Below the pieces are notes generated by a model that saw only the letters and a program-made list of their open reading frames with translations, did no database searches and was not told the origin of the DNA. Of a stretch of DNA of 55,161 nt, positions 11,334 through 30,138 are shown piece by piece; the stretch's first letter is position 1, and each line of letters opens with the position of its first letter. Where the stretch lies: assembly GCA_016219865.1 (NCBI GenBank), contig JACRKF010000014.1:1-55161 (forward strand). Reading direction: 5' to 3'. Both the position numbers and the translations under genes were made by a program. The stretch is from Candidatus Woesearchaeota archaeon. GTDB taxonomy: Archaea > Nanobdellota > Nanobdellia > Woesearchaeales > DSVV01.

Positions 11334-13883
11334 ATGATTGAAATCGAAAAATTAAAAAGAACATTTGATGCTGTATTCACAGAAACAGATAAAGTAATTG
11401 TTGGACAACGAGATATTATAGAACAAGTTCTTGTTGCAATGTTAGCTGATAGCAATGCGCTTCTTGAAAGTTATCCAGGTTTGGGTAAAACATTGACGAT
11501 CAAAACTTTATCTCAAGTTATGGATATGAAATTCAGCAGAATCCAATGCACTCCTGATTTAATGCCATCAGATATCACTGGCACTGAAATTATTGAAGAA
11601 TCTGGCGGAAAACGTTTTTTTAAATTTCAAGAAGGTCCTGTATTTTCAAATATTCTGCTAGCAGATGAAATTAACAGAGCAACGCCAAAAACACAATCAG
11701 CATTGTTAGAGGCAATGCAGGAGAAACAAGTAACTGTAGGAAACAAGACTTATCAGCTTGACAGACCTTTTTTTGTATTAGCAACGCAGAATCCTATCGA
11801 GCAAGAGGGAAGTCTAGCTCTAGATCAGTATGTGTTTGTTAATGGGCAGTTAAAAACAGGTCATCAACTGCTTGCATTGGTTGGCGATAATTGTATAGCA
11901 GAAGATGAAAAAGGAATTAAACTGTATAATCTTGATGGTTATACACTTTCTCTAAACACGGCAGCAGTATTAGAAAAACAACATTGTTATCTTTATACAT
12001 TGCCATATACAGATGAAATGATTGCAATAACTACTAAAACAGGTAAGGAAATAAAAGTTACTAAGAATCATCCTTTTCTAGTTAATGACAACGGAACAAT
12101 ATGTTGGAAAAAAGCAGAAGAATTAACGAAATATGATCATTTAGTTAATCCTGCAAGAATAAAAGTTGATTCAAAACAGATTAAAATACCAACACATGAA
12201 GAGACTCTTGCGCAAATGGATCAAAAAGCAATTGTTCAAGAGATTACATTTGATGAAGATTTTGCTTTTTGGATTGCATTCTTATTATCAGATGGTTATA
12301 TCGGAGAAAAAACTGTGCAAGCAGTACAGAAAAATTATCCAGAAGCACTTGATAGGTTTGTTGCAATCTCGCAAAAGTATGGTTTTAATCCAAATGTAAG
12401 TCTAAATAGGGGCTGTAGATATGCAACAATCTATTCAAAGCCACTTGTTGAATATTTAAATATCAGGTTTGGTGTTACTGGCGGAAAGGATAAGGAAATT
12501 CCTTCATGGTTTTTATCATGGTCAGAAGCAATGAATCGAGAATTTGTCAAAACATTTATCTGTTTAGAATCCTCATTGCGAGATAATAGGATTGTATTTA
12601 CACAAAAAAGCAAAAATAATATGAATATCATAAGTTATATGCTTTTGCGGGAAGGAATCATCAGTTTTCCTCGATTTGATGGCAAAATATATCGCTTGAA
12701 AATCCAAGGAGAAGATTGTGTAAAGTTTCTAAATAGAATTGGCTGGATTAATGAAGAAAAGGCTGCAATTGTTGACTGCATGAGAAAAATCAAATCAAGT
12801 TTTAGGGTAGTGCCTGTCCAAAGAAATGCAATTCTTAAGCTTGTAAACCTCTTAGGTATAAATAGTTTTCATACCCTTAAAGAACGAACAAATATTACAG
12901 AAAGAAGCTGGTATGGCAGTTATCAAGGTATAAAACAAGGAGAAACTCTTATGGCTGTAGATTCATTGCGTGAATTTGTTCAAGATATTGAAAATGAACT
13001 CTTTCTACGAAAGCAGCAGTCACATGATGATATTTTAGAAACTGATCCACGACAATTCGCTGCAACAATAGGTACGTCAATGACAGAAGTAGCTGAACTC
13101 TTGCAAATATCACATAATCAAGTATGGGGATATTATACAGGTAAAAATTCTCAATCAATAGTTCAGATTAAAACAGTTTTGCAAGAGAAAAAAGTACTTT
13201 GTTTGGAAGAAGCTCAGAAGTTGTTGAACTATTGCAAAGCTCTTTTAAGTGAAGATGTTTATTATGATGCAATCAAAACAATAGAATATTCACCTTCTCA
13301 AGGAATGGCTTTTGGTTTGACTGTGCCAGAAACACAAAATTATATTGCAGGTTTTGGCGGCTGCGGCATTAATCATAATACTTATCCATTGCCAGAAGCT
13401 CAAACTGATAGATTCTTGTTAAAGATTAAAGTAGATTATCCAACTTTTGATGAAGAAGTTGAGATTGTCAAACGATATACTAAAATCTTAAAAGAAGAGC
13501 CTATCAAAAAAATTTTGGGGAAAAATTCTTTCTTAGCATTGCAAAAATTCACTAGAGAAGTGCCAATTGCAGATGATTTAGCAAAGGATGTTGTTAAAAT
13601 AATAGGGTTAACAAGATCTGAGAAAGAGTTTATTGAATATGGTTCATCGCCAAGAGCATCAATTGGTTTAATATTAGCAGCAAAAGCAACTGCATTAATG
13701 AATGGAAGAAGCCATGTCAGCGCAAAAGATATTGAAAAAATGGCATATCCTATCTTGCGTCATAGAATTATCTTAAATTTTGAAGCAGAAAGAAAAGGTT
13801 TGACTAATGATGATGTTATTCGAAAGATTCTGGAAAAAACAATAGGGACGACTGATAAGGAGAAAACAAAAAAAGATAAATAA
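11334..13883 (+). CDS. moxR: MoxR-type AAA+ ATPase (AAA_3 family) interrupted by an intein
   Basis: Exteins read ...ESYPGLGKT (Walker A) ... LLADEINRA (Walker B) ... [12 protein letters not shown] | intein | [21 protein letters not shown]..., which is the contiguous MoxR consensus when spliced. GAGGT SD upstream. Confidence 0.9.
11811..13379 (+). mobile_element. Intein (523 aa) with LAGLIDADG homing-endonuclease domain inside moxR
   Basis: Starts with Ser right after NPIEQEG and ends in HN followed by Thr+1. Has a block B-like TKNHPF, two LAGLIDADG-like motifs about 100 aa apart ([13 protein letters not shown] and [12 protein letters not shown]), and a terminal [10 protein letters not shown]. 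Confidence 0.85.
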
Positions 13884-16229: not shown

Positions 16230-19200
16230 ATGAAAAAGAGAAACAATTTAATTAAAATAAGCAAGGATGCAAAGAAATTTGTTAATAAATCTTTGGCATT
16301 ATTTATGATTACTTTAGTTTTAACACTTCCTTTTTTCTCTGCAGGCGCTTTAGCTGCAACAGGGCAGATTGAGGAAGTTGCATATTCTGGTGATGCTGGC
16401 ATTGCTGGATATATAAATGGAAAAGATGATGTTTTGCATGTTGCAATTGTTGCAAGCAAAGATGTTGGAGAAACAACAAATAAAGATATTGTAATAGAAT
16501 TTAATAATAAACAAGTAAATGCAGACAAATGCGAGGCTGCAACTGCAACTTCAGCAGTTCTAGATGAGACAGCACTTGTTGGTGTTCCACATAAATATAT
16601 TTGCACTTATACTTCAGAACAGAAAACATATTCAGCTGGAAAGATGGATCTTAAAGTAAAATTAGTCGATAAACCAACAGTATCAATATTGGATACTGTG
16701 TTAAAAGAAGTTTTAGTTGATGGTTATGGTCCTGAGATTAATTTAGATATTCCTTCTGGAACAAAAGATAGTTTTACACTTAAATATGACATTAAAGATA
16801 AAATCTGCAAAGATTGCGCGCAACAATGTGTTGGATTATCTCAAGTGTTTTTGGTTGTCAATGGAAATATTGCAGATCAACAAGAGTTTGCTGATCAAAA
16901 TCTTTGCGATTATTCAGTTAATGAAGAAAAATCTATAGGGGATTTGAATCTAGAATTTGGCAAGAATGAGATTTGTGTTGCTGCTGTCGATAAACTTGGG
17001 AATATTGGCGGCAAGGATAAGAAAAAAGGAGAATGCAAAACTATTAATGTTGATAATACTGCGCCAATTTTTGATGAAAATTCATTTGTTATTCTAGACG
17101 ATAAAACTGGAATGGTTATGAATTTTAGAAAAGACACAGTGACAACAGCAACAATCATGATAAATGTTACTGATGATCAAACTAAGATTAAGCCGCAAAA
17201 TGTAGAAGCTGATTTCTCAGCGTTAAATGCAGCATATAAAAGCGAATATAAATCAATAAAACCAACTCAGTGCAAAGAATATGAACTTGAAATAAGCAGC
17301 GAGCAATCAATCTCTTTGTATGAATGCGCATGGAGTAAAATTAAAATTGCAGGCAATTTGGAAGCTGATAGCATTCCTGTAACAATTAAAGCAAAAGATG
17401 CAAGCGAAAATGCAGCTGTTTTCTCGAAAACTCTTAATTTGCCTATAGATGCAGCTGATCCAAAGGTTGTAAAAATAGTTGCATTGTCTGAAACAGGGCA
17501 ACAGATAAAATATCTTAATGGAGATAATAATACAATTGCTTTGCTAATTGATGAGCAAGGCGCTGGATTATCTAAGGCAAATGTGTATATTAAAATAAAT
17601 GGAAAAGAAAGCAAGGCAACAAGGTGCATTGCTGATAATGGCTGGATATGTTTATTTGAAAATGTTCAATCTTTATCAGGGCAAACTGGAGATTCTAAGT
17701 TAATTTCTGTTGTTACAGAAAAATCAAGCGATGATATTGGAAATTTCTTTGATGATAAAGGAGATAATAAAGAAATCTTCTTGCTTGATGCAGATGCTCC
17801 TGAATTTTCTTCAAAAAGCATTTCAATAAAACCAAGCGGTGTTGAAAGAGATACTCTTGTTAATGGTGATATTGTTGATATAAAAGCGCTTATTAAAGAA
17901 AGAGGCGCAGGGTTATCAGCAGAAAATGCGTATGCTGATATTACTGCATTTGATCCAAGTTTAGAGGGAGATGCAGCAAGATTAAAAGCAGAAGATTGTT
18001 CAGTTAAAACAGAAAATGATGAAAGTGCAGCTGTTGCTCCTACGTCTGCTCCTGCAGATGGTGAAGCAGATGCTGCAGAAGTTGAAGAGGATTTGTTTTC
18101 TAATGATGAACAATTATATGAATGCACTTTCCAATATTCAGGCAGTATTGCAGCGCAAGATATTTCATTAGAAATTGTTGCGCGAGATCTAGCGAACAAT
18201 CAAAAGAGAAGCAGTGATGATGATGAATATGGTAAAATTAAAGCAGTTGAAATTGCGCAGAAAAAAGCAGATTTCTTTGTTGATAGTCTTGAAATAAAAG
18301 CAGATGAAATTAATAGAAATCATCTTTGGATGAGTGATGCAGGCGCAATTGTCAGAGCAGAGGTAACATTGCAAGCGAAAGGAGGAAAAGAGCCTTATGT
18401 GCATGGTTTTAGATTTGGCACTTGCGCAGGAGCAATTGATACAGAAAAATCATTAAATGGCTCAACACCAATTACATTCAATGAATATGGCACTCCTGAA
18501 GTTAAGAGCAAAGGAAGAAGAACAAAATTAATTCTTTTAACACTGCCAACTATGGATAAAAAATTGCTTAAGGATGCAAAAACATTTACAGTTACTTGCG
18601 ATGGAGCAATTACGCAGTCAAGTTCAAAAAACAGCAATATATTCTCTCCTGATGAAGCATTTCAAGCAGTAATTACAATCCCGATAGGTTCATCTGTTTA
18701 TAATCCAGGAGATGCGGCATTGAATAAGATTATTGAAGGAAAAGGATTTGTTGATGCAATGGACGCAATTCTGAGTGTATTAGAGCCAATTGTTGATATT
18801 TTAAGCAAGATTTGCGAGCCAATTAATGATATTAGAACAATTATCAATAATATTTGCGCAGTCATAAATGGTCTTGCAATAGTATTTACAGGCACCCCAT
18901 GGGGTGAAGCTACAGGAGCTGCGTCAACTTTACGTGGAAATGATAATACTTGCACAGACATTGGAAAGTTCATGGATAAATTATGGCAAGGTTCTAGTCC
19001 TGATCCTGAAGCATGGAATGAAAAAAGTTTTGCAAGCATTGGATATTGGTGTGACTTAGTATTATGCACAAGCTGTTCAGAACAATGGGGCAGTAATATT
19101 CTTGGCGGTTGGGGCGGAGATATTCCAGGCAGTCCTGCAAGTGTATTTGGTGATAAAATTAAATCAGATCCTTCTGCAGCAAGAGCTGCTGCTGATCTTA

Positions 19201-19775
19201 CACATCAGCCAGGTGATCCTCCTAACTTAGGTGATTTTACAGTTGGGTTAAATCTTGATCCGCAGCAGAGTTTAATTGTTGCGTTAATTTGTTCACCTCC
19301 TTGTCTGCCAACTATAAAAAATAAATTTACAGCAATGAAACAAATTGCTGTTTCAAATAATGTCTGCAGAAACTTGGCATATAGAACAACTAAGACTGAT
19401 AAATCTCCTGCTGACTTTAGTAAATGCGATGGTCTTAAAGGACAGCAAATATGTCAATTTATTGTTGGAGAAATTTGGTATATTGTGCCGTCTATAATAT
19501 CGCAGTTTGCAACAAAATGGGTTTCATATTTTGTAGAAAAAGGCTTGCGTTATATTGGCGGTTGTCCAGATGGAATACAAAGTCCAGGAACAACTGTTTG
19601 CATTGTTACCAGAATAGAGATTGCAATATCAACTGCTTTCAAAATAACAGAAACAGTTGCTAAATTTGAAAAGTTGGCAAAAGCGTTTGACTTTGACACA
19701 AAAAGCGCAGATGATACAGAAGATGATATTGAAAAAGAGTACGAAGAAGCTTACGGGGAGATTCCTGAAGAATAA
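16230..19775 (+). CDS. Family B giant secreted protein, copy 1 (Ig-like repeats plus Cys-rich core)
   Basis: 1181 aa starting 2 nt after the family A gene. Sec-type signal (..FFSAGALAATGQ), four or more repeat modules bordered by D-x-x-(A/G)-P motifs, a Cys-rich core shared with 33136-39159, an acidic tail, and no TM anchor. Confidence 0.8.
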   Translation: MKKRNNLIKISKDAKKFVNKSLALFMITLVLTLPFFSAGALAATGQIEEVAYSGDAGIAGYINGKDDVLHVAIVASKDVGETTNKDIVIEFNNKQVNADKCEAATATSAVLDETALVGVPHKYICTYTSEQKTYSAGKMDLKVKLVDKPTVSILDTVLKEVLVDGYGPEINLDIPSGTKDSFTLKYDIKDKICKDCAQQCVGLSQVFLVVNGNIADQQEFADQNLCDYSVNEEKSIGDLNLEFGKNEICVAAVDKLGNIGGKDKKKGECKTINVDNTAPIFDENSFVILDDKTGMVMNFRKDTVTTATIMINVTDDQTKIKPQNVEADFSALNAAYKSEYKSIKPTQCKEYELEISSEQSISLYECAWSKIKIAGNLEADSIPVTIKAKDASENAAVFSKTLNLPIDAADPKVVKIVALSETGQQIKYLNGDNNTIALLIDEQGAGLSKANVYIKINGKESKATRCIADNGWICLFENVQSLSGQTGDSKLISVVTEKSSDDIGNFFDDKGDNKEIFLLDADAPEFSSKSISIKPSGVERDTLVNGDIVDIKALIKERGAGLSAENAYADITAFDPSLEGDAARLKAEDCSVKTENDESAAVAPTSAPADGEADAAEVEEDLFSNDEQLYECTFQYSGSIAAQDISLEIVARDLANNQKRSSDDDEYGKIKAVEIAQKKADFFVDSLEIKADEINRNHLWMSDAGAIVRAEVTLQAKGGKEPYVHGFRFGTCAGAIDTEKSLNGSTPITFNEYGTPEVKSKGRRTKLILLTLPTMDKKLLKDAKTFTVTCDGAITQSSSKNSNIFSPDEAFQAVITIPIGSSVYNPGDAALNKIIEGKGFVDAMDAILSVLEPIVDILSKICEPINDIRTIINNICAVINGLAIVFTGTPWGEATGAASTLRGNDNTCTDIGKFMDKLWQGSSPDPEAWNEKSFASIGYWCDLVLCTSCSEQWGSNILGGWGGDIPGSPASVFGDKIKSDPSAARAAADLTHQPGDPPNLGDFTVGLNLDPQQSLIVALICSPPCLPTIKNKFTAMKQIAVSNNVCRNLAYRTTKTDKSPADFSKCDGLKGQQICQFIVGEIWYIVPSIISQFATKWVSYFVEKGLRYIGGCPDGIQSPGTTVCIVTRIEIAISTAFKITETVAKFEKLAKAFDFDTKSADDTEDDIEKEYEEAYGEIPEE

Positions 19776-19779
19776 ACAC

Positions 19780-19815
19780 TTTGCTTTTTTCTGAATGCGT
19801 TCAGAAAAAAGCAAA
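19780..19815 (+). terminator. Perfect 16-bp hairpin with T6 run just after the family B1 stop codon
   Basis: tttgcttttttctgaa-tgcg-ttcagaaaaaagcaaa, 5 nt after TAA 19773-19775. Confidence 0.45.
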
Positions 19816-19928
19816 TAGCAGGGATTATGGTTTTGGAGCGGGTAATTCGAGCAAAAGAGAATCTTGGTAGAAAACTGCAAAAATTGAAGAAAATTTTGCA
19901 AAGTTCTCTGAACGGAGTGAACTTTTTT

Positions 19929-21278
19929 ATGAAATTGAAAGAATCAGAAACAGTTGAATTTAAGAAATCAACGAGTGAGTTAAAAGAAGCTGTTATTTCG
20001 ATAGTTGCAATGCTAAATAAACATAGAAAAGGGGAATTGTATTTTGGCGTCAGAAATGATGGTGTTGTTGTTGGGCAAACAATTGGCGAGAATACAATCA
20101 GAGATATATCTAAAGCTGTTTCTGATAATATTGAACCAAAAATATTCCCTAAGATAAATGAACTATTGCTTGAAAACAAAAAGTGCGTAGTTGTTGATTT
20201 TGTTGGTCGAGATATTCCTTATTATGCATATGGCAGAGCGTATATGCGCGTTGGTGATGAGGATAAAAAGATAAGAGCTAAAGAACTTGAGAATATGATT
20301 ATCTCTAAAAATAAAGATAAATTGCAATGGGATAAAGAAATCTGCAAAAATGCTACATTAGATGATATTGATGATGAAACTGTAAAAATATTTATTGATT
20401 TAGCAAAAGAAAGCAAGAAAATAAAAATTACAAATGAAACAAAAATAATGATATTAAAAAAGTTGGAACTTATGAATAATAGTAATCATTTAACTAATGC
20501 AGCAATACTTCTTTTTGGAAAGCAGCCACAGCATTTCTTTAGTAATATATCAATCAGATGTGGAAGATTTAAAGGAGTTGGACAACAAGAATTTATAGAT
20601 ATGAAAGATTTTGAAGGCAATCTTTTTACTTGTTTGGAGAAATCTGTGTCATTTCTTAAAGATCATTTGCATATAACTGCAAAAATAAAAGGATTACTAA
20701 GAATTGAAAAATGGGAAATTCCTCTTGAAGCATTAAGAGAGGCAATTATTAATGCTTTGATTCATAGGGATTATTATGATACAAGCAATATTTATATAAA
20801 GATCTATGATGATTCAATTGTTATAGCAAATCCTGGCAAACTTCCCGATGTTTTAACAATAAAAGATTTATATAAAACACATGAATCAAAACCAAAAAAT
20901 CAATTGCTTGCAAATGTATTTTATTATGCCGGATTTATTGATAAATGGGGAAATGGGATTCTGAATATAATTGATTTCTTGAAAAAAGAAAATCTAGAAA
21001 AGCCAATATTTGAACAAAGCGGTGGTTCATTTAGAATAATCTTTAAGCGACCAATGTTAGAAAACGACCTAGAAAAGAAAACTGTGGAGAAAACTGTGGA
21101 GAAAATGTTAACAATGATTAAAGAGAATCTAAGTATTACGCAACAAGAGCTTTCAAGAAAGACTGGATTAACAAGAAGAGGAGTAGAATGGAACCTAAAG
21201 CAACTTAAAGAAAGAAATCTTATCGAGAGAGTTGGTCCAGACAAAGGCGGATATTGGAAAGTTATTCAAAAGAAATAG
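19929..21278 (+). CDS. AlbA_2 (Schlafen-like) / HATPase_c_4 / winged-helix putative transcriptional regulator, copy 1
   Basis: Starts MKLKESETVEFKKSTSELKEA (AlbA_2 hallmark). Central EALREAIINALIHRDY and FIDKWGNGI (RecG-C-terminal-like ATPase fold). C-terminal wHTH ending GPDKGGYWKV. ATG 19929 chosen by alignment with the paralog at 23123. The ORF-track extension from 19827 has no support. Confidence 0.8.
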   Translation: MKLKESETVEFKKSTSELKEAVISIVAMLNKHRKGELYFGVRNDGVVVGQTIGENTIRDISKAVSDNIEPKIFPKINELLLENKKCVVVDFVGRDIPYYAYGRAYMRVGDEDKKIRAKELENMIISKNKDKLQWDKEICKNATLDDIDDETVKIFIDLAKESKKIKITNETKIMILKKLELMNNSNHLTNAAILLFGKQPQHFFSNISIRCGRFKGVGQQEFIDMKDFEGNLFTCLEKSVSFLKDHLHITAKIKGLLRIEKWEIPLEALREAIINALIHRDYYDTSNIYIKIYDDSIVIANPGKLPDVLTIKDLYKTHESKPKNQLLANVFYYAGFIDKWGNGILNIIDFLKKENLEKPIFEQSGGSFRIIFKRPMLENDLEKKTVEKTVEKMLTMIKENLSITQQELSRKTGLTRRGVEWNLKQLKERNLIERVGPDKGGYWKVIQKK

Positions 21279-21321
21279 AAGAATCTAAATAGCAGTTAAT
21301 TAAAAAGAAAGGTAAGAAACA

Positions 21322-22980
21322 ATGAAAGATTTCAAACGAATGCTTGTAATGATTATCGTAATAATTCTTTTGATAGCTATAAGCTTATTTGCTGAGAAAA
21401 GTGATTTTAACCAAGAAAAAAAGGATTTGATTGGGAAAGTGATTACTGTTGCTCAAATTGATGCATTTCCAACAAACTCACTTATAAAAGCAGATGATGG
21501 AAGATATTTAAAGGATGGAGCTGTTTTTTATAAAGTAAAAGATGGTAACACACTATCTCCAGGTACGATTACATCAGCTCAATTATTAGGGAAATGCGCT
21601 AAAGAATGTACGATAGTTGGTTATTTGAAATCAGGTCAACAAGTACTGCAAGTTGGTAAAGTGTATCACTTTAATCAAATTTCTGATCAATTATCATCTT
21701 CTTCAGCAACTATAAATTATAATTATAAACTTAATGAAGCTGTAAGTGGTGATGTACTAATAATTGGTTCAGAAACATATATCAAGAGAAAAGGTGGTTG
21801 GGTGAAATCAGATAATGAGAATGATGATGAAAACAAGCCAAGAATAAATGATGCAGAAGTAGATATATTAATCAAATCTAATTGTAAAAATAGAAATCAA
21901 TGTAGTTTAAATTCTAAAGATTTGGTAACAGTGACTACAGTTCCAGCTGAATCACCTAAATTAGTTTCAGTTGATGACGCACAACAATCACCTTCTCACA
22001 TAAACAATGATGGTTCAGTTACATTCAAATCAGCAGATGGCAAACAAATATTCATCGTTCCTGCAGGACAATCAGATGTGTTTATCTGTAATGATGATAA
22101 ATGTGAAAAGCCAACAAAATGTTCTAGATGTAAATTTGAAAAGAAAGATGGCATGCATACATTTCTTAATAATGGCGAGGAAGTTGAAACAGATTTAGAT
22201 GAAGATGAAACTCCTGAAATTATTCGAGAGAAGAATGAAGATTTTTGCACAAAAGAAAATAATATGGATCAAGGACAATGTCAATATGTAAAGCAAAATT
22301 TAATCAGTGCTGTAAATATTGCAACTGCGCCATTTAGAGCAGAAATTGAAAGAATTATTTCTCCATATATTAATTCATTATTGGATGAAATGTGGATAGG
22401 AAGCAATAGAAATTTCATAATGGCTTGGTGCGGAGCAAAGTATTATGAAAAAGAAGGTTCACAGATTCAAGCATTTGGAAGTATATCTGATAGTTGGAAA
22501 GCACCTAATACTTTTGGTGTTCAAGATCCAGTTGATGTTGTTTATAATGGATTATTAAGCGGTGAAAATAATATCATCAAAATGTCAGGCACTAAAGAAG
22601 AAATTACACCAGAAATGTATCGTTATTCTGGAAGAGTACAATTGCTGGGTAATATGCAATATAGAGTTTATTTCTATAACTCTTGCACTAAACAAAGTTC
22701 TTTATTTGAAGGCGGCTTTGTTAAAGAAGGGCAATTATCTGCAACAGGCCAGCCAAATTATGATATTCAACAGTATAATGATTATTTTGCAGGAGCTGCA
22801 ACAACATTTAATTGTAAAACTGGAGCTTGCAGGTTTAATCAACTTTGCGCGCGAACAATTAAAACTATAAATAATGAAGATCAAAAAGAAGAAGAAACTT
22901 GCGTAACGCTTGCAAAAAAGAAATTCTTGACGCCATTTAAAGACGGCAAAGCTAGCAAAGATGGCAGTGTTGATTGTTAA
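21322..22980 (+). CDS. Family C secreted protein, copy 1 (variable repeats plus conserved 9-Cys C-terminal domain)
   Basis: 552 aa with N-terminal signal anchor. The C-terminal ~250 aa are highly similar to the C-terminus of 24584-28681 (NIATAPFRAE, WIGSNRNFIMA.CGAKYYEKEG, IIKMSGTKEEIT). Ends in ...GSVDC. Confidence 0.8.
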   Translation: MKDFKRMLVMIIVIILLIAISLFAEKSDFNQEKKDLIGKVITVAQIDAFPTNSLIKADDGRYLKDGAVFYKVKDGNTLSPGTITSAQLLGKCAKECTIVGYLKSGQQVLQVGKVYHFNQISDQLSSSSATINYNYKLNEAVSGDVLIIGSETYIKRKGGWVKSDNENDDENKPRINDAEVDILIKSNCKNRNQCSLNSKDLVTVTTVPAESPKLVSVDDAQQSPSHINNDGSVTFKSADGKQIFIVPAGQSDVFICNDDKCEKPTKCSRCKFEKKDGMHTFLNNGEEVETDLDEDETPEIIREKNEDFCTKENNMDQGQCQYVKQNLISAVNIATAPFRAEIERIISPYINSLLDEMWIGSNRNFIMAWCGAKYYEKEGSQIQAFGSISDSWKAPNTFGVQDPVDVVYNGLLSGENNIIKMSGTKEEITPEMYRYSGRVQLLGNMQYRVYFYNSCTKQSSLFEGGFVKEGQLSATGQPNYDIQQYNDYFAGAATTFNCKTGACRFNQLCARTIKTINNEDQKEEETCVTLAKKKFLTPFKDGKASKDGSVDC

Positions 22981-23088
22981 AAGTATTTTTCTGAGTCAAA
23001 AATAGAAGAATATAAAAAGAAGTTAATTAATAATATAAAATAGTTAAAAAAGTGCAAGAGTTACGCTATCTTCACTATTACTGAGCTT

Positions 23089-23121
23089 AAAAAAACGACG
23101 ACTAAAAGGAGGAGTTTTTTT
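23089..23121 (+). promoter_or_regulatory. Conserved SD-containing leader hairpin motif, copy 2
   Basis: aaaaaaacgacgactaaaaggaggagttttttt directly 5' of ATG 23123. Shares aaaaaacgacga and ggagtttttt with copy 1. Confidence 0.45.
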
Positions 23122-23122
23122 A

Positions 23123-24481
23123 ATGAAATTCAAAGAATCAGAAACAGTTGAACTTAAAAAATCAACAAGTGAATTAAAGGAAGCTGTTATTTCTATAGTT
23201 GCAATGCTGAATAAACAGCATAAAGGTGAAGTCTATTTTGGAATAAGAAATGATGGTGCTGTAGTTGGGCAAACAATATCAGAGAATACAATTAGGGAGA
23301 TTTCAAGGGTAATATCTGAATCTATTGAACCAAAAATCTATCCAAAAATAGATGAAGTTGTTGTTAATGGTAAAAATTGTGTGTCTGTTGTTTTTCTTGG
23401 AAATGATATTCCTTATTATGCTTATAGCAGAGCATATATGCGTGTTGGTGATGAGGATAGGAAGATTAGTGCTAGAGAACTAGAGAGAATAATTCTTGAA
23501 AAAAATAAGGAAAAATTGCGTTGGGATAATCAGATATGTAAAGGTGCTAAGCTAAGTGATATTGATAATGAAACTTTACAAAAATTCATTGATTTAACAA
23601 AAAAAGAGAAACGAATCATCATAACTGAGAAAAATAATGAACTTATTCTCAAAAAATTAGGTTTGGTCACTAAAGAAGGTATAACAAATGCAGCAATACT
23701 TTTGTTTGGTAAAGAACCTCTTCGTTTTTTTTTCAACAGTACAGTAAAAGCTGGAAGGTTTAAAGATTTCATAAAGAAAGAATTCATTGATATTAAAGAT
23801 TTTAATGGTAATCTTTTTCAAACTCTTGAAAATGTTATGCTTTTTTTTCAGAACCACCTGCATACTCGAGCAAGGATTGAAGGATTGCAAAGAATTGAAA
23901 AATGGGAGATACCTCTTGAAGCATTGAGAGAAGCAGTGATTAATGCTCTTATCCATCGTAATTATTTTAATAATGAATCTACATATATAAAAATCTATGA
24001 TGCAGCAGTTATTATTGCAAATCCTGGTAATTTATTGGCAAATCTTTCTATTTCTGATTTATACAAAGAGCATAATTCTGAATTACGCAATCCGTTATTA
24101 GCATATACTTTTTATTATGCTGGGTTCATCGATAAATGGGGCAGAGGAATTCTTAATATTGTTGATTCTCTCAAACAAAATAAATTGCAAAAACCTCAAT
24201 TTGAACAAAAAGGCAGTTATTTTAGTATTATTCTTAAACGAGAATTAGTTGAAAATGCATCTGAAAAGGTCCCTGAAAAGGTCCCTGAAAATGTTACTCC
24301 AAATCAAGAAAAGATAATTAATTCTATATCAAGAAGTAATTTTATCACAATTCCTGAATTATCAAAAATTATTGGCATTTCAGAGAGAAAGATTAGGGAA
24401 AATATAAGAAAATTAAAACAAAAAAAATTGCTCGAAAGAATCGGTCCAGACAAAGGCGGCTATTGGAAACTGTTGCGATAG
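23123..24481 (+). CDS. AlbA_2 (Schlafen-like) / HATPase_c_4 / winged-helix putative transcriptional regulator, copy 2
   Basis: 452 aa and collinear with 19929-21278. About nine in ten nucleotides of the first ~95 nt are identical by my eye count. Same ESETVE.KKS, EALREA.INALIHR, FIDKWG.GI and GPDKGGYWK motifs. Confidence 0.85.
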   Translation: MKFKESETVELKKSTSELKEAVISIVAMLNKQHKGEVYFGIRNDGAVVGQTISENTIREISRVISESIEPKIYPKIDEVVVNGKNCVSVVFLGNDIPYYAYSRAYMRVGDEDRKISARELERIILEKNKEKLRWDNQICKGAKLSDIDNETLQKFIDLTKKEKRIIITEKNNELILKKLGLVTKEGITNAAILLFGKEPLRFFFNSTVKAGRFKDFIKKEFIDIKDFNGNLFQTLENVMLFFQNHLHTRARIEGLQRIEKWEIPLEALREAVINALIHRNYFNNESTYIKIYDAAVIIANPGNLLANLSISDLYKEHNSELRNPLLAYTFYYAGFIDKWGRGILNIVDSLKQNKLQKPQFEQKGSYFSIILKRELVENASEKVPEKVPENVTPNQEKIINSISRSNFITIPELSKIIGISERKIRENIRKLKQKKLLERIGPDKGGYWKLLR

Positions 24482-24555
24482 ATTTATTAATACAAAATAT
24501 AAAAACAAGTTTATTAATAAGCTAATTAAGTAAAAGGTCCGTAAGTTTAGCTAAT

Positions 24556-24580
24556 AAAAAACGACCTAATGGAGTTTTTT
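24556..24580 (+). promoter_or_regulatory. Conserved SD-containing leader hairpin motif, copy 3
   Basis: aaaaaacgacctaatggagtttttt. By analogy with copies 1 and 2 the gene starts at the ATG 3 nt downstream (24584), not at the ATG embedded in the motif (24569). Confidence 0.4.
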
Positions 24581-24583
24581 ATC

Positions 24584-27500
24584 ATGAAAAAAGAGGATAA
24601 GAAGGCAATAATTGTCTTAGTTTTAATTCTGATAGTGTTAGCTAGTTATTTAATTAGTAATCCTGGAGTTTTGTCGACTGATGAGAAGAAAGAGGATTTT
24701 GTTGGGATGGCAGAATATGAAGCTGGTAAAAGTCAATACAAAGCTACACAAGAGATTAAAAAAGTACCTGTTGGGTCATTAGTTACAATAAAAGCAGGCG
24801 GTGGAGGAATTTATGTTTATAAAAAATTAGATGGGAATCAATTATTATTAGTTTATGTTAATGGTAAATCAATACCAGCTCAGAAACCAAAACATGATTG
24901 GGAAGTAACTGCTGCGAGTTATGCTCAAGGAGGAAAATTAACAGCAATTGAATCATTTCCAGAACAACAAAAGAAAGCTGAACCTGCAGAAGCTAAATTT
25001 GATGAAACATCTGATGAAACAGAGGAAGATGTTGCACCAGATTTATCTCCACCAGAAGATACTGATAAAAAGAAAAAAGATGAAACATCAACACCAATTC
25101 TTTCACCAACACAAAAACTTTCTGCAGCAGAATCAACAGCGAAAGTTGAACAGCTGCAAGCAAAAGTATATGATCCTCAGACAAAATCTCTTACAGTTAC
25201 TCAACCAGATGGTTATACAATTACGTTTACTAAAACAGAAAATGGCTGGAAAGATAATTCTGGAAGTAATTATGAGGATACATCACTCGCAGTTGCAATA
25301 AGTAATAATTTAGCTTCTGGAGATTTCACAGGTGTACAATTAAAAACAAATGATGGACAAACACATACAGTAACTGGAAGTGAATTAACATTTGCTAAAC
25401 AACCAGCAACTGCCCAACAACCAACAACTCAAAAACCAGCTGTTGTTACGACAAATGATGATCAAGGAGAAACTGATGGTTTATTTCCAGCAGGTGGAAT
25501 AGTTCCTCCTGAAATTGCTGGTACAGATAATCCAGAATTAGATAAATCTCTTGAAGATGTAAAGGTTCCAGAATCTAAAGCAGGAGAAGATAAATATAAA
25601 GATGCTTTTAAATCTGCAAAGTCAGAAGATGATAAGCCAGAAATTCCTAAACCTAAACTTTATGCAGCTGAGAGTGAGGATGCTCCAAAAGGAAAGAGTG
25701 GAATAGAAACTGCTGCAACAAAAAGTTCTATTGACCAAGCAATTGATCTATATGAACAAGGGGACTATGAAGGTGTAAAGACAATAATGGAGACTGTTGT
25801 AAAAACAGAGCCTTCAACTAATAATTATTTTAAACTAGCAACTGCATTGCAAGCCTTAGGTGAAAATGAAAAAGCACTTGATGCTTATAACAAAGCAAAA
25901 AAATTAGCAAAAAATGATCAAGCAATAGCTAAAATTGAACAACAAATTGAAAATGTGCAAGAGAGTCTAGCTCAAACGTCTGTAGATGTTGAACAAATAT
26001 CTACAGCAACTAAAGTTGTAGAAGCAGAAAAGGCAGCTGCTGATGCTACAGACAAAAAAACTTCAGATGAAGAAAAAAAGACTTTAAAAGATTTAAAAGA
26101 ATGGTGGCAATCTATTTTTGGCAATGATGAAAAAGCAGATTTAGATAAAACTGGACAAGAAGCAGTTGCAGCAAAAAAAGATAGCAACGGTTTTTTACAA
26201 GGGCTTGTTGATTTCTTTTCCTTTGATAGCGATAAGACAACAACACCTGAAGAAGTCATAATGAAACAAGCTACTCCTGAAGAAGAAGCTGAAGTATTTG
26301 CTGATTGGAATTCTGGCGGAGATGATGCTGAAGATGATGTTGAGTTAATAGATGAAGAATCTGCACCTGAAGTTGAAGAAGAACCTATACCTGAAGCAGA
26401 ACCACTACAGCCAATTCCTCCTCTAGAAGTTGCTCCACTAGAACCTGAAACACCCAAAGTTGAAGGACCTATTTATGGACCTCCCACGGGAACAATAAAC
26501 AAACAAGCAACTTCTGAAATAATAGATACTAAACCGGAAAATACAATTGCTAATAACGATGAACTCAAAGTAACGCCAATAGTAGATAAACCAAAACTTG
26601 AGGATGGGAAGTTGACTGCAGAACCTCCAGCATCGACTCAAGCAACTATTACTTATTCTGCACAAGTACATACAAAAACACTTCCAGATGGAACAAAAAT
26701 GGATTACCAACTCCAAACAGGTTCAGATGGATCTACAAAAATAATTATATGTGTTGGAACAGTATGTACTACTTGCCCTAACTGTAAAGTTGAGCATAAT
26801 CCATCAGGTGGAATTAAAATAACAGAACCAAATACAAAAGGAGGAGATGATGATGTTGTTGTTTTTGGTGCTGAAGTTATACCACCAGCACAAACACCAT
26901 CAAAACCAGGAAACATCGAAGCTAAATCCATCGATAATGCTTTAGAAGATATGAAAGAAAGTAATGCTGGTTCAACAATTGAAGTTGATGGATTAAAATA
27001 CACAAAAGGAGACAATGGAAAGTGGACTGCAAAACCTCCAGAAGGCGGAACACATACATTAGGTGATGATGAAGTTGCACAAAAATGTGAAAAGAATAAA
27101 TGTAATACCAAATTAATGTTTGACGGTCAAACAAGAATTTATACTCATGATCCTGAAGCAGAAGAAAAAGTTGAAGCGCAAACAACGTCAGTTGATAAAC
27201 TTATTTCATTTGAATCTTCAGAGGTAACAGGTTTAAGTGGAATCACAGATATAGATAATGCACCAGAAGGTACAACTATTCATGTTGGTGATCAAATTTT
27301 TAAGAAAAAAGGTGGTAAGTTGGTTTTATTGGATGATTCTCTTGAAGAAACAAGCAATTCTGTAGAATTAACTCAAGAGAATAAAGCTAAGCTTGATGCA
27401 GAATTAAAGCAAAGATGTGCGGTGGGTTCAAATGAAGGTTGTGTTATAATAGTTGAATCAGCAGGCGATAAACCAGTACCAAAACCATCAACTAATTTTG

Positions 27501-28681
27501 ATGATGTTGTTGCTAATCTTGATAAGCAAGCTTCATCTGGTTCAATTGCTGTAGTTAATGGAGTAGAATATATTAAAGATATGGATGGTAATTGGGTTGA
27601 GACAAATGATAATACTCACATACTTACTGACCAGCAAATGAAAGGAAAATGTAATGATAACTCTTGTAAATTAACAATTAATGCGGAACAAGGAGTAGTA
27701 GATGTAAAGAATAATAAACCTGAACTAAAAATGCCAGCAACTGTTGGAGCTGATGGTTCTGTTACTTATTCTGTTGGTGAAGGCGATTCAGCAGTTACAT
27801 ATAAAGTACTTGCAGGTGAAACTGATGTGCAAATTTGCAAAGGAGACAAATGTGAGAAATGCGAAAAGTGCGCAACTAAAGGTGGAAAACTTCTTGATTC
27901 TGATGGGAAACCAATAGGCGATTCTCCAGAAGCAGCTAGAGAAAAAGCAGAGGATTTCTGTGTCAAAAATCTTGATGATAAAAAATGCGCTTATGTTGCA
28001 GAAAATTTAAAGAATGCAGTAAACATTGCAACTGCTCCATTTAGAGCAGAAGTTGAAAGGATAGTTGGCTCTTATGTTAATACATTGCTTGATATGGCAT
28101 GGATAGGGAGCAATAGAAATTTCATAATGGCAATGTGCGGAGCAAAGTATTATGAAAAAGAAGGTGAAGCAGTTGGCGCATTTGGCGGGATATCTGACAG
28201 TTGGAAAACACCATTAGGTTATGGAGCGCAAGATCCAGTTGATGCAATTTACGATGGTTTGTTAACAGGAGGAAGCAGTATTATTAAAATGTCTGGAACT
28301 AAAGAAGAAATTACTTCGGAGATGTACAGATATACAGCACGTGTGTTATTGATAGGCAACTTTGAATATACCATATATTTTCAGAACTCTTGCACAAAAG
28401 AGTCATCAGCATTTGAAGGTGGTTTTGTTAAACAAGGAACAGTGCAAGCGCTAGGAGCTCCAAATTATGATATCCAAGATTATCGAGATTATTACTCAGG
28501 TTCATTGACAACATTTGATTGTGCAAATGGCCCATGCAGGTTTGATCAGATATGTGTAAAACGAGATCCAGCAAATGACGATAAAATAGAGAATCCATTT
28601 TGTGTAACATTAGCAAAAGGCAAGTTCAGAACAAAGTTCAAAGACGGCAAGTCTGATGAAGCTGGAAGTGTTGAATGTTGA
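24584..28681 (+). CDS. Family C secreted protein, copy 2 (signal anchor, repeats, TPR-like and acidic/Pro-rich linkers, conserved 9-Cys C-terminal domain)
   Basis: 1365 aa from ATG 24584. N-terminal TM (AIIVLVLILIVLASYLI), TPR-like DQAIDLYEQGDYEG...ALGENEKALDAYNKAKKL, a PE-rich linker, and several ~55-aa repeats each ending in a CxxxxC pair. C-terminal domain paralogous to 21322-22980. Ends ...GSVEC. Confidence 0.8.
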   Translation: MKKEDKKAIIVLVLILIVLASYLISNPGVLSTDEKKEDFVGMAEYEAGKSQYKATQEIKKVPVGSLVTIKAGGGGIYVYKKLDGNQLLLVYVNGKSIPAQKPKHDWEVTAASYAQGGKLTAIESFPEQQKKAEPAEAKFDETSDETEEDVAPDLSPPEDTDKKKKDETSTPILSPTQKLSAAESTAKVEQLQAKVYDPQTKSLTVTQPDGYTITFTKTENGWKDNSGSNYEDTSLAVAISNNLASGDFTGVQLKTNDGQTHTVTGSELTFAKQPATAQQPTTQKPAVVTTNDDQGETDGLFPAGGIVPPEIAGTDNPELDKSLEDVKVPESKAGEDKYKDAFKSAKSEDDKPEIPKPKLYAAESEDAPKGKSGIETAATKSSIDQAIDLYEQGDYEGVKTIMETVVKTEPSTNNYFKLATALQALGENEKALDAYNKAKKLAKNDQAIAKIEQQIENVQESLAQTSVDVEQISTATKVVEAEKAAADATDKKTSDEEKKTLKDLKEWWQSIFGNDEKADLDKTGQEAVAAKKDSNGFLQGLVDFFSFDSDKTTTPEEVIMKQATPEEEAEVFADWNSGGDDAEDDVELIDEESAPEVEEEPIPEAEPLQPIPPLEVAPLEPETPKVEGPIYGPPTGTINKQATSEIIDTKPENTIANNDELKVTPIVDKPKLEDGKLTAEPPASTQATITYSAQVHTKTLPDGTKMDYQLQTGSDGSTKIIICVGTVCTTCPNCKVEHNPSGGIKITEPNTKGGDDDVVVFGAEVIPPAQTPSKPGNIEAKSIDNALEDMKESNAGSTIEVDGLKYTKGDNGKWTAKPPEGGTHTLGDDEVAQKCEKNKCNTKLMFDGQTRIYTHDPEAEEKVEAQTTSVDKLISFESSEVTGLSGITDIDNAPEGTTIHVGDQIFKKKGGKLVLLDDSLEETSNSVELTQENKAKLDAELKQRCAVGSNEGCVIIVESAGDKPVPKPSTNFDDVVANLDKQASSGSIAVVNGVEYIKDMDGNWVETNDNTHILTDQQMKGKCNDNSCKLTINAEQGVVDVKNNKPELKMPATVGADGSVTYSVGEGDSAVTYKVLAGETDVQICKGDKCEKCEKCATKGGKLLDSDGKPIGDSPEAAREKAEDFCVKNLDDKKCAYVAENLKNAVNIATAPFRAEVERIVGSYVNTLLDMAWIGSNRNFIMAMCGAKYYEKEGEAVGAFGGISDSWKTPLGYGAQDPVDAIYDGLLTGGSSIIKMSGTKEEITSEMYRYTARVLLIGNFEYTIYFQNSCTKESSAFEGGFVKQGTVQALGAPNYDIQDYRDYYSGSLTTFDCANGPCRFDQICVKRDPANDDKIENPFCVTLAKGKFRTKFKDGKSDEAGSVEC

Positions 28682-28746
28682 ACAAAACATTTATATACTT
28701 GTGAGGTATTATACCTATTAAGTATTATACTTGGCAGGTATATAAA

Positions 28747-30138
28747 ATGAAATTTTACAATAGGGACAAGGAAATAGCAATATTTTCTAAAATCAAAAAA
28801 GATTTTCGAATTGCTATTCTTGGCAGGAGAAGAGTTGGAAAAACACGGTTGGTGGAACATTTCTATAAAAGTGATGCTATTGTCTTCTTTATTCCTGCTG
28901 AAAAGATTGAAAAGCAAATTATCGAAACTTGGAGGGAACAATATCCTGAGCTGCATCTGCCAGAAAGCAGCACCTTTGAGAACTTTTTCAGTTTTGTTTT
29001 TTTTCATTACAAAGATAAGATTATATTTCTTGATGAGATACAAAATGTAATAAAAGTAAATAAGTCTTTTCTTTTCGATCTTCAAAGACTTATTGATAAG
29101 TACAAACCAAAGCTTATTGTTACAGGTTCTTTGATCAGTCCGATGAAAGAAATAATCCAAGAATACCAAAGTCCTTTGTACGGAAGATTTGATTATGTTA
29201 TCAAACTTGATGAGCTCTCATTCAAGACAGTTTATATAATGGGTAAAGATTTACAATTGAAATTTGAGGAAATTGTGCTTTTTTATCTCTTTTTTGGCGG
29301 CATCCCTAAATATTATGAACTTGTTGAAAAGATAGAGCCATTTATTTTAGAGGAGTTTGTCGCAGAAATGTTTATTCGTTATCCTCGTCCATTGTATGAA
29401 GAAGTGAAAATGATGCTTAAAGAGGAATTTGGTTCTGAATATAAAATGTTTTTTTCAATACTTTCTGCAATCTCGCAAGGAAAAAATAAACTTTCTGAGA
29501 TTGCAACTTCTTTAGGCTTAGCAGAAACAAAGATAACAAAATACATCGCTTTGCTTAAAGATGATTTTGAAATCATAACTAGAACAACACCAATCATTGA
29601 CGGCAAGAAAAACATCTATCAGATAAAGAATCATATGTTTTCTTTTTGGTTTGATACTTTGTGGAGGTATAATAATCTGCTTGAAATCAATGCAGAAAAA
29701 GAATTTGAAGAGAGTGTGAAACAACGATTTGGAAACTATCTTGGCGTCCAATTTGAGAATCTATTGCTTGAATTGATCAGAGATAATGTGATTCAATTGC
29801 CTTTCAATCCAGAAAAGATAGGAAAGCAATGGGGTAAAGTGAATTCAGAAATGCTTCCAAACAATCAATATGAGATTGATATCGTTGCATTCAATGAGAA
29901 AAACAAGAAAATAGCGTTTTTTGAATGTAAGTTGAAACAAAATGTTAATGCGCAGAAAGTGCTTGCTGATCTGCAAACAAAAGCACAATATGTTCATTGG
30001 AATATAAATAACAGAACGGAGTATTATTTCATAATCGCAAAAAGCTTTACAAAAAAAATAGCAGCTACAAATGGAGCTTTTGTATTTTGCATTGACTTAA
30101 TTGATATTGAAAATTATCTCAAAAAAAGTATTAAATGA
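28747..30138 (+). CDS. Archaeal ATPase (Arch_ATPase-type AAA+) with DUF234-like C-terminal domain
   Basis: 463 aa with Walker A LGRRRVGKT and Walker B IIFLDEIQ. The C-terminal segment FENLLLELIRD...YEIDIVAFNEKNKKIAFFECK is typical of the DUF234 nuclease-like fold. Confidence 0.75.
   Translation: MKFYNRDKEIAIFSKIKKDFRIAILGRRRVGKTRLVEHFYKSDAIVFFIPAEKIEKQIIETWREQYPELHLPESSTFENFFSFVFFHYKDKIIFLDEIQNVIKVNKSFLFDLQRLIDKYKPKLIVTGSLISPMKEIIQEYQSPLYGRFDYVIKLDELSFKTVYIMGKDLQLKFEEIVLFYLFFGGIPKYYELVEKIEPFILEEFVAEMFIRYPRPLYEEVKMMLKEEFGSEYKMFFSILSAISQGKNKLSEIATSLGLAETKITKYIALLKDDFEIITRTTPIIDGKKNIYQIKNHMFSFWFDTLWRYNNLLEINAEKEFEESVKQRFGNYLGVQFENLLLELIRDNVIQLPFNPEKIGKQWGKVNSEMLPNNQYEIDIVAFNEKNKKIAFFECKLKQNVNAQKVLADLQTKAQYVHWNINNRTEYYFIIAKSFTKKIAATNGAFVFCIDLIDIENYLKKSIK

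Follow-up and report, generated by a model that had tools for sequence, protein, structure and literature searches.

The stretch of DNA analysed here (the window; 55,161 nucleotides, contig JACRKF010000014.1 of assembly GCA_016219865.1, Candidatus Woesearchaeota archaeon) is a single contig of a 1.34-Mb, 55-contig genome with about 31% G+C, and carries on its forward strand a run of four genes, R1, C1, R2 and C2, in which two Schlafen-type genes (R) alternate with two copies of a surface-operon gene (C). An earlier note, made from the sequence alone, had described this run as a tandem repeat of a regulator-C pair, and all four open reading frames (ORFs) are found in the order and at the positions that it gave (Table 1). 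The arrangement is real, but it is ordinary in kind and is not a conserved regulator-target module. In what follows, G and L numbers designate related genomes and loci, G000 is the genome holding the window, and the sister species (G001, locus L042), annotated as Candidatus Woesearchaeota archaeon, is the closest public relative.

The R1 and R2 proteins are 60% identical over 453 amino acids (E=0; 68% at the DNA level), and the near-identity of the 5' ends of their genes, which had been noticed by eye, amounts to 91% identical DNA over the first 30 codons. The R1 start at 19929 is correct, the homology to R2 and to all relatives beginning at M35 of the ORF that opens at 19827; the latter position was rejected as the R1 start, its upstream part being a non-homologous extension. 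The C1 and C2 proteins share 49% identity over 417 amino acids (E=2e-126), which correspond to their C-terminal ~415 residues, and 65% in the last ~250. The exact runs previously reported between their genes are present, as a 23-mer at 22402 and 28109 and a 30-mer at 22429 and 28136, and their N-terminal parts are, as claimed, unrelated in length and content: a signal-anchor-like N-terminus and the C-terminal ~415 amino acids are all that the two have in common. C1 gave no match in Pfam, NCBIfam or PADLOC, and AlphaFold2 applied to the common C region (five sequences) reached a predicted local distance difference test (pLDDT) value of 54.8. The description of two paralogue pairs in direct order, with common leader and promoter elements, is supported, C1 and C2 being the sole genes with a C domain in the 1.34-Mb genome and R1 and R2 its sole full-length R genes. 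Two further fragments of the R family lie on other contigs of G000 (C17:11403-12050 and C28:19257-19505), each with an in-frame stop, and show an ongoing decay of members of this family.

Both R proteins combine the SLFN_AlbA_2 domain (PF04326; 66.0 bits for R1 and 57.9 bits for R2, cut-off 25.3), followed by the HATPase_c_4 domain (PF13749; 79.5 and 69.9 bits, cut-off 26), and a C-terminal helix-turn-helix (HTH) domain, HTH_24, at residues ~390-440 (29.3 and 22.5 bits, cut-off 21.9). The Ex4ExK motif, E5-x4-E10-x-K12 in R1 and R2, is at least 95% conserved among 58 homologues; the invariant E271/N275, PG 302-303 and WGxG 340-343 of the ATPase occur in both proteins, and the near-invariant positions of the family are retained at 64/64 in R1 and 62/64 in R2. 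By these residues both look functional, and the differences between them are concentrated in the hinge and the HTH, where the identity falls to 30-37%. R1 matches the SLFN-GHKL part of a PADLOC pAgo model, and a sequence search of the PDB returned 3LMM only, an uncharacterised protein. More than 2000 homologues of R1 are found at E<1e-30. About 14 foreign proteins, encoded by other Woesearchaeota, by Nanoarchaeota and in one Patescibacteria bin, equal R2 in their similarity to R1.

Judged by their domain order and their Ex4ExK motif, which are those of the HisKinase-HTH prokaryotic Schlafens (pSlfn; "Schlatpases", older label COG2865), R1 and R2 are ordinary standalone members of this class and do not belong to the operon in which they lie. 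According to PMC13056530 (Nat Microbiol 2026), HisKinase-HTH proteins make up 19.2% of 5,930 prokaryotic Schlafens, the catalytic motif being Ex4(E/D)xK. A preprint (bioRxiv 10.64898/2026.05.29.728809) describes a "Schlatpase" supradomain, most members of which carry only a short C-terminal HTH, and reports that the SLFN domain of a pAgo fusion cleaves tRNA after ATP-driven tetramerisation; that work concerns the fusion, whereas R1 and R2 are standalone proteins. PMC13462974 likewise reports Schlafen-ATPase-DNA-binding proteins that adjoin defence systems. The R family as a whole is very large and patchy and is now linked to phage defence; R1 and R2 resemble the other HisKinase-HTH pSlfn in their patchy, horizontally mixed distribution and in the toxin-antitoxin, integrase and defence-candidate genes among the neighbours. 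Unlike the known cases, they are archaeal (DPANN) members situated inside a surface-protein operon.

The tblastn synteny map of 24 loci reveals the six-gene order A1-B1-C-X30241-A2-B2 in nearly all genomes of the family. C is the third gene of this family-wide surface-protein operon, and C1 and C2 are its copies. The C domain is present in 21 of the 24 genomes of the same family and in 0 of 16 other families of the order, and a search of 1.8 billion representative proteins gave only 30 matches to it. B1, C and X30241 are directly adjacent in most genomes and leave no space for an R gene; the genus of the window has two C copies, plus cargo genes between the operon genes. The fixed coupling of a regulator to C, which had been proposed, does not survive this comparison: an intact R stands beside C in the window genome only, and the pairing is absent from the related genomes, an outcome that the earlier note had itself named beforehand as contrary to its proposal. 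Of the 24 family genomes, 10 have R homologues, most of which are on contigs other than that of the operon or at a distance of 45 kb from it, and decaying copies occur in the window genome, G001, G002 and G010. The three nearest R homologues on long contigs have unrelated surroundings: one is set among housekeeping genes, one adjoins PemK and PIN genes and an integrase fragment, and one lies at the border of an integrated element that carries integrase, primase-polymerase and ERF. No C-type gene stands beside any of the three.

The locus of the sister species reads B1, a 70-aa ORF, C1 (396 aa), an AAA_14/DUF4143 ATPase, C2 (1163 aa), a nucleotidyltransferase/DUF6932 pair on the opposite strand, X30241, A2 and B2. 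The 70-aa ORF (L042 9776-9988) is an in-frame remnant of R1, made of its start (KESETVEFKKSTS), a piece of the end of the ATPase and its final residues, and of 120 homologues R1 is the nearest to it; R1 therefore predates the split of the two species and decayed in the sister lineage. R2 is absent from the sister locus, where the C2 promoter motif leads directly to the ATG of C2 and there is no scar that an R gene might have left. Both sister C genes are nevertheless intact and conserved without functional R genes, so that, in effect, the regulators have been lost naturally and their supposed targets kept. In the same species the C1 promoter motif was deleted along with the body of R1, so that C1 may now be driven by the former promoter and leader of R1.

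The opposing view, in which each R would bind DNA and serve the C gene that follows it as a dedicated sensor or regulator, acting through common leader and promoter elements, starts from the winged HTH present in both R proteins and from the regulatory features of the locus. A promoter-like motif (AAGAATATAAAAAGRAGTTAAT) lies upstream of C1, R2 and C2, and a hairpin enclosing the Shine-Dalgarno sequence is common to R1, R2 and C2, C1 and the sister C2 being devoid of it. The hinge and the HTH are the most divergent part of the R1/R2 pair, as expected if their DNA specificities differ. Moreover, the hinges are encoded by perfect tandem repeats at matching positions, with different units in R1 and R2, and the R2 hinge 9-mer AAAAGGTCC recurs in the C2 leader; this is its sole copy outside the R2 hinge in the 55-kb window (3 matches in total against 0.21 expected), and the placement has a probability of about 0.01-0.035. 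The R1 hinge word AGAAAACTG at 19869, 60 nt upstream of R1, is not significant (p=0.06-0.13), and no match, exact or near, of the hinge units was found in the own flanks of five homologues. We regard the hinge-word and leader evidence for a local R-C link as suggestive only. Against such a dedicated regulator stand the lack of the pairing in more than 20 related operons, the sister species that retains both C genes intact without a functional R, the unrelated cargo in the matching slots elsewhere and the unrelated neighbours of the closest R homologues; besides, a plain repressor needs neither an intact Schlafen nuclease motif nor a GHKL ATPase. Taken together, these observations make it unlikely that R1 and R2 are devoted to the control of C1 and C2.

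The hinge repeats are a property of the class as seen here. Each of the seven Schlafen-HisKinase-HTH genes examined (R1, R2, L047, L048, L049, L014 and L016) has a tandem repeat in the hinge preceding the HTH, with a period of 11-12 nt and 2.5 to 4.3 copies; it is perfect in five of the seven, including R1 and R2. The repeats encode (x-x-E-K)n, and the unit varies with the gene (EKTV, EKVP, EKTR, EKWS, EKGV).

The age of the duplicates was estimated from the identity of synonymous codons at identical amino acids, for which 0.53 is expected from codon usage alone, i.e. at saturation. This value is 0.61 for R1/R2 and 0.57 for C1/C2, compared with 0.62-0.75 for seven orthologue pairs between the window and the sister species, so that both duplications are older than the split of the two species. 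In the tree, C1 groups with the sister C1 (98, Shimodaira-Hasegawa-like approximate likelihood ratio test, SH-aLRT) and C2 with the sister C2 (95 SH-aLRT), and the four genes form a clade (99) next to the single-copy C of a groundwater contig (L041). The C1/C2 duplication predates the sister-species split, and the copies have since evolved independently. The recent duplication that had been put forward is contradicted by these near-saturated synonymous sites and by the grouping of each C copy with its sister orthologue.

Nor do the sequences bear out an ongoing gene conversion. The DNA identity of C1/C2 (0.63) equals that of the cross-species paralogues (0.63 and 0.62), the orthologues being at 0.78 (C1 and sister C1) and 0.76 (C2 and sister C2); paralogues are less alike than orthologues, and no concerted evolution of C1/C2 was found in the window lineage since speciation. 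Across the six pairwise C comparisons, the block with both exact runs (23 nt and 30 nt) is consistently 87-93% identical and thus bears the mark of constraint, not of conversion, and the longest stretch of identical codons does not reach significance (p=0.08). Along the identity profile, what remains of the claim is the 5' 480 nt of R1/R2, which are less diverged, while the rest is diverged and shows no ongoing homogenisation: the synonymous identity of the two R genes is 0.73 up to residue 160 and 0.52 beyond (max-chi-square permutation p=0.014). Such a mosaic would be expected if the 5' third had undergone a partial conversion long ago. In the sister species, C1 and C2 reach 93% DNA identity in two short tracts (C1 residues 330-349 and 410-439; L042), and their overall synonymous identity is 0.70 versus 0.57 in the window, which suggests a local C1/C2 gene conversion in that lineage.

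These tracts, the mosaic divergence of R1/R2 and the existence of two surface paralogues with a conserved C-terminal domain and variable N-terminal parts are what could be invoked for a phase or antigenic variation system, as the earlier note had envisaged, in which surface variants would arise by recombination or conversion within the C pair or within the R pair. The window, however, contains only short inverted repeats of chance level and none of sizeable length, no recombinase domain was detected in its larger ORFs, and no invertase or recombinase gene was found in the stretch. As C1 and C2 are only 63% identical in DNA, lack concerted evolution in the window lineage since speciation and share no significant run of identical codons, we consider a variation system highly improbable.

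The reading that we favour, to which we give a probability of about 70%, combines an old duplication of C in a conserved surface operon with accessory Schlafen-type genes, probably antiviral, lodged upstream of each copy. C would have been duplicated together with its promoter motif in the ancestor of the genus to give C1 and C2, and R1 and R2 would occupy intergenic slots around C in which relatives hold other cargo, R1 being already in place in the ancestor common with the sister species. Each R would act as an autonomous sensor-effector that oligomerises in an ATP-driven manner and cleaves RNA, probably tRNA, on infection. Through its HTH it would bind the promoter region of its own gene, and any effect on the expression of C would be a positional side effect.

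Several points weigh against this proposal. The leader common to R1, R2 and C2 and the presence of R2's private 9-mer in the C2 leader leave room for a local regulatory link, and genes of the R family have landed in the B1-C slot in two genera. We know of no demonstrated defence activity of the HisKinase-HTH class in archaea. R1/R2 and C1/C2 are similarly diverged, which also fits an en-bloc duplication followed by the loss of R2 in the sister species, and trees constrained to R1 and R2 as sisters have a higher likelihood (approximately unbiased test, p-AU 0.68 and 0.83). Finally, HisKinase-HTH is absent from the architectures tested for defence in PMC13056530.

How R2 came to lie between C1 and C2 is where two histories part. 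R2 is bracketed by a 33-nt direct repeat formed by motif copies A and B (29/33 identical, z=5.8), and among the members of the R family the flanking-repeat test was significant for R2 only. The sister motif, directly before the C2 ATG, is identical to copy A at 27 of 30 positions, to copy B at 18 of 22 and to the C1 copy at 27 of 34. Since R2 is thus enclosed between two copies of the C2 promoter/leader element, copy A being the best match to the sister, insertion is favoured over an en-bloc duplication, and we infer, with a slight preference, that R2 entered by recombination at this element. The alternative is a single duplication, in the ancestor of the genus, of an ancestral R-promoter-C unit, after which the sister species would have lost R2 altogether and R1 for the most part; the R genes would still be accessory, and this account differs from the one we favour in the history only. 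The direct R-C-R-C order, the comparable divergence of both pairs, the homology of the last ~30 nt upstream of R1 and R2 and of the motifs downstream of each, the R1 remnant that shows R decay to occur in the sister species, and the tree with R1 and R2 as sisters, which is not rejected and has the higher likelihood, all agree with it. A clean duplication of the unit, on the other hand, predicts neither the two C2 elements around R2 nor the better match of the upstream one; the sister C2 motif leads straight to the ATG without an R scar, and a tandem duplication of C without R exists in G019. The en-bloc duplication is in our view possible but somewhat unlikely. The phylogeny was rejected as proof that R1 and R2 were acquired independently: a quick maximum-likelihood tree separated them, and the constrained trees scored better.

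The tandem C-C pair of G019 (L034 2651-11675), which belongs to another genus, consists of proteins of 2132 aa and 775 aa with no gene between them and no R; the two copies are each other's sisters (95 SH-aLRT), and the duplication of C there is accordingly independent. A shorter second locus of the form C-(cargo)-A2-B2, without A1, B1 and X30241, occurs at L022, L023, L025, L029 and L036 (G017, G019, G010, G002 and G012, respectively). The C domains of these shorter loci form a separate clade, from which part of the operon exists in two ancient versions.

On the basis of the gene content of the relatives, the slots flanking C look like an insertion hot spot. AAA_14/DUF4143 genes (PADLOC PDC-S01) occur there in G001, G010 and G017, and toxin-antitoxin pairs with a nucleotidyltransferase in the groundwater contig as well as in G002, G010 and G017; genes for Fic, Bro-N, DUF234, AsnC-type regulator and PIN-like proteins are further occupants. 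The B1-C slot of G010 contains a fragment of a different R lineage, R1 ranking 55th among its matches, and this slot was hence used at least twice. At two loci, the toxin-antitoxin cassettes 3' of C are bracketed by direct repeats of the 3' end of C (Table 1); these repeats would be the footprint of a single-crossover insertion that keeps C complete. The variable content at one position around C is likewise that of defence islands and accessory hot spots (Makarova et al. 2011, cited in PMC13056530), as are the single-gene defence candidates (PDC-S01, PDC-S27), the toxin-antitoxin pairs and the rapid decay of the copies. What sets the present case apart is that the slots, three in number and very small, lie within an operon that is otherwise conserved, that integrase and tRNA genes are lacking, and that two cassettes are enclosed by repeats of the 3' end of the adjacent gene itself. 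In the Campbell-type integration of elements that target tRNA genes, the 3' end of the target is similarly repeated and the gene stays complete; here, in contrast, the cassettes are without integrase and the repeats are 87-88% rather than fully identical.

A broader scheme, which we consider doubtful, would unite the integrase-free cassette hot spot flanking C, private DNA words of the R proteins and a coupling of R2 to C2. Defence and toxin-antitoxin cassettes would enter and leave by single crossover at homology with the C promoter or the C 3' end, leaving direct repeats. Each Schlafen-HTH protein would recognise a private DNA word, spelled out a second time in the perfect 12-nt repeat of its own hinge, and because the word of R2 stands in the C2 leader, R2 may couple the sensing of infection to the expression of a surface protein contacted by viruses or hosts.

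Under the reading favoured here, a tempting false lead is removed, in that the AlbA_2/HATPase_c_4 genes do not represent a new class of dedicated surface-protein regulators; R1 and R2 belong to a prokaryotic Schlafen defence family that was characterised recently, and they have settled at a permissive site. The locus provides a dated example of a conserved Woesearchaeota surface operon that tolerates duplication and cargo insertion around one gene, and adds DPANN archaeal cases of Schlafen cassettes within a surface-structure locus.

Table 1. Features of the R-C-R-C locus and of its surroundings (window coordinates unless a locus is named).
Feature	Position	Strand	Description
A1	14041		Operon gene
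B1	16230-19775		Operon gene
Hairpin after B1	19780..19815	+	Perfect 16-bp stem and T-run, directly 3' of B1 stop; -18.6 kcal/mol, z=-4.6
R1 upstream region	19869..19925	+	Degenerate 9-10-nt repeat (AGAAAAYTG x2.8), then hairpin enclosing GGAG ribosome-binding site
R1	19929..21278	+	449 aa; SLFN_AlbA_2, GHKL ATPase PF13749, winged HTH; HisKinase-HTH / Schlatpase class
R1 hinge repeat	21076..21105	+	Perfect 12-nt x2.5 tandem (AGAAAACTGTGG), peptide KTVE-KTVE, between ATPase and HTH
C1 promoter-like motif	21273..21312	+	AAGAATCTAAATAGCAGTTAATTAAAAAG; overlaps R1 stop codon, ends ~10 nt before C1 ATG
C1	21322..22980	+	552 aa; N-terminal hydrophobic anchor or signal; Cys-rich ~250-aa C-terminal domain
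Motif copy A	23001..23035	+	90 nt upstream of R2; best-preserved counterpart of sister C2 promoter motif
R2 leader hairpin	23087..23123	+	A-run/U-run hairpin enclosing GGAGG, just before R2 start; -9.7 kcal/mol, z=-4.1
R2	23123..24481	+	452 aa; second Schlafen HisKinase-HTH protein; long branch in tree
R2 hinge repeat	24261..24291	+	Perfect 12-nt x2.6 tandem (CTGAAAAGGTCC), peptide EKVP-EKVP
Motif copy B	24489..24520	+	Directly after R2 stop; direct repeat with copy A
R2 hinge 9-mer in C2 leader	24532..24540	+	AAAAGGTCC; 51 nt past R2 stop, ~44 nt before C2 ATG
C2 leader hairpin	24554..24582	+	Encloses ribosome-binding site; homologous to R1 and R2 leaders
C2	24584..28681	+	1365 aa; long acidic, Pro-rich variable middle; weak TPR match; C1-type C-terminal domain
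DUF234/ATPase_2 archaeal ATPase	28747..30138	+	PADLOC candidate PDC-S27; in slot between C2 and X30241
X30241			Operon gene
A2	31066		Operon gene
B2	33136		Operon gene
Sister cassette repeats	L042 16010-16076 and 17071-17137		67 nt, 88%
Groundwater contig cassette repeats	L041 8755-8875 and 10144-10264		120 nt, 87%

Among the other features, the DUF234/ATPase_2 gene is accessory cargo; it is missing from the sister species, where the nucleotidyltransferase toxin-antitoxin pair fills the slot. The 65-nt spacer in front of it is taken up by a 16-nt x3 repeat at 28694-28741 (TATACTTGTCAGGTAT), which looks like an operator array. The hairpin that follows B1 is probably a terminator or attenuator separating B1 from the downstream genes, and the sister species has a hairpin of different sequence (z=-2.5) at the matching place. 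Rfam yielded nothing above threshold in the 13.5-33.5 kb region, and the window contains no tRNA genes. The MoxR gene of the window (11334-13883) holds a 523-aa intein, and the sister MoxR gene (326 aa, L017 4822-5799) is uninterrupted, so that the presence of this intein varies between the sister species.

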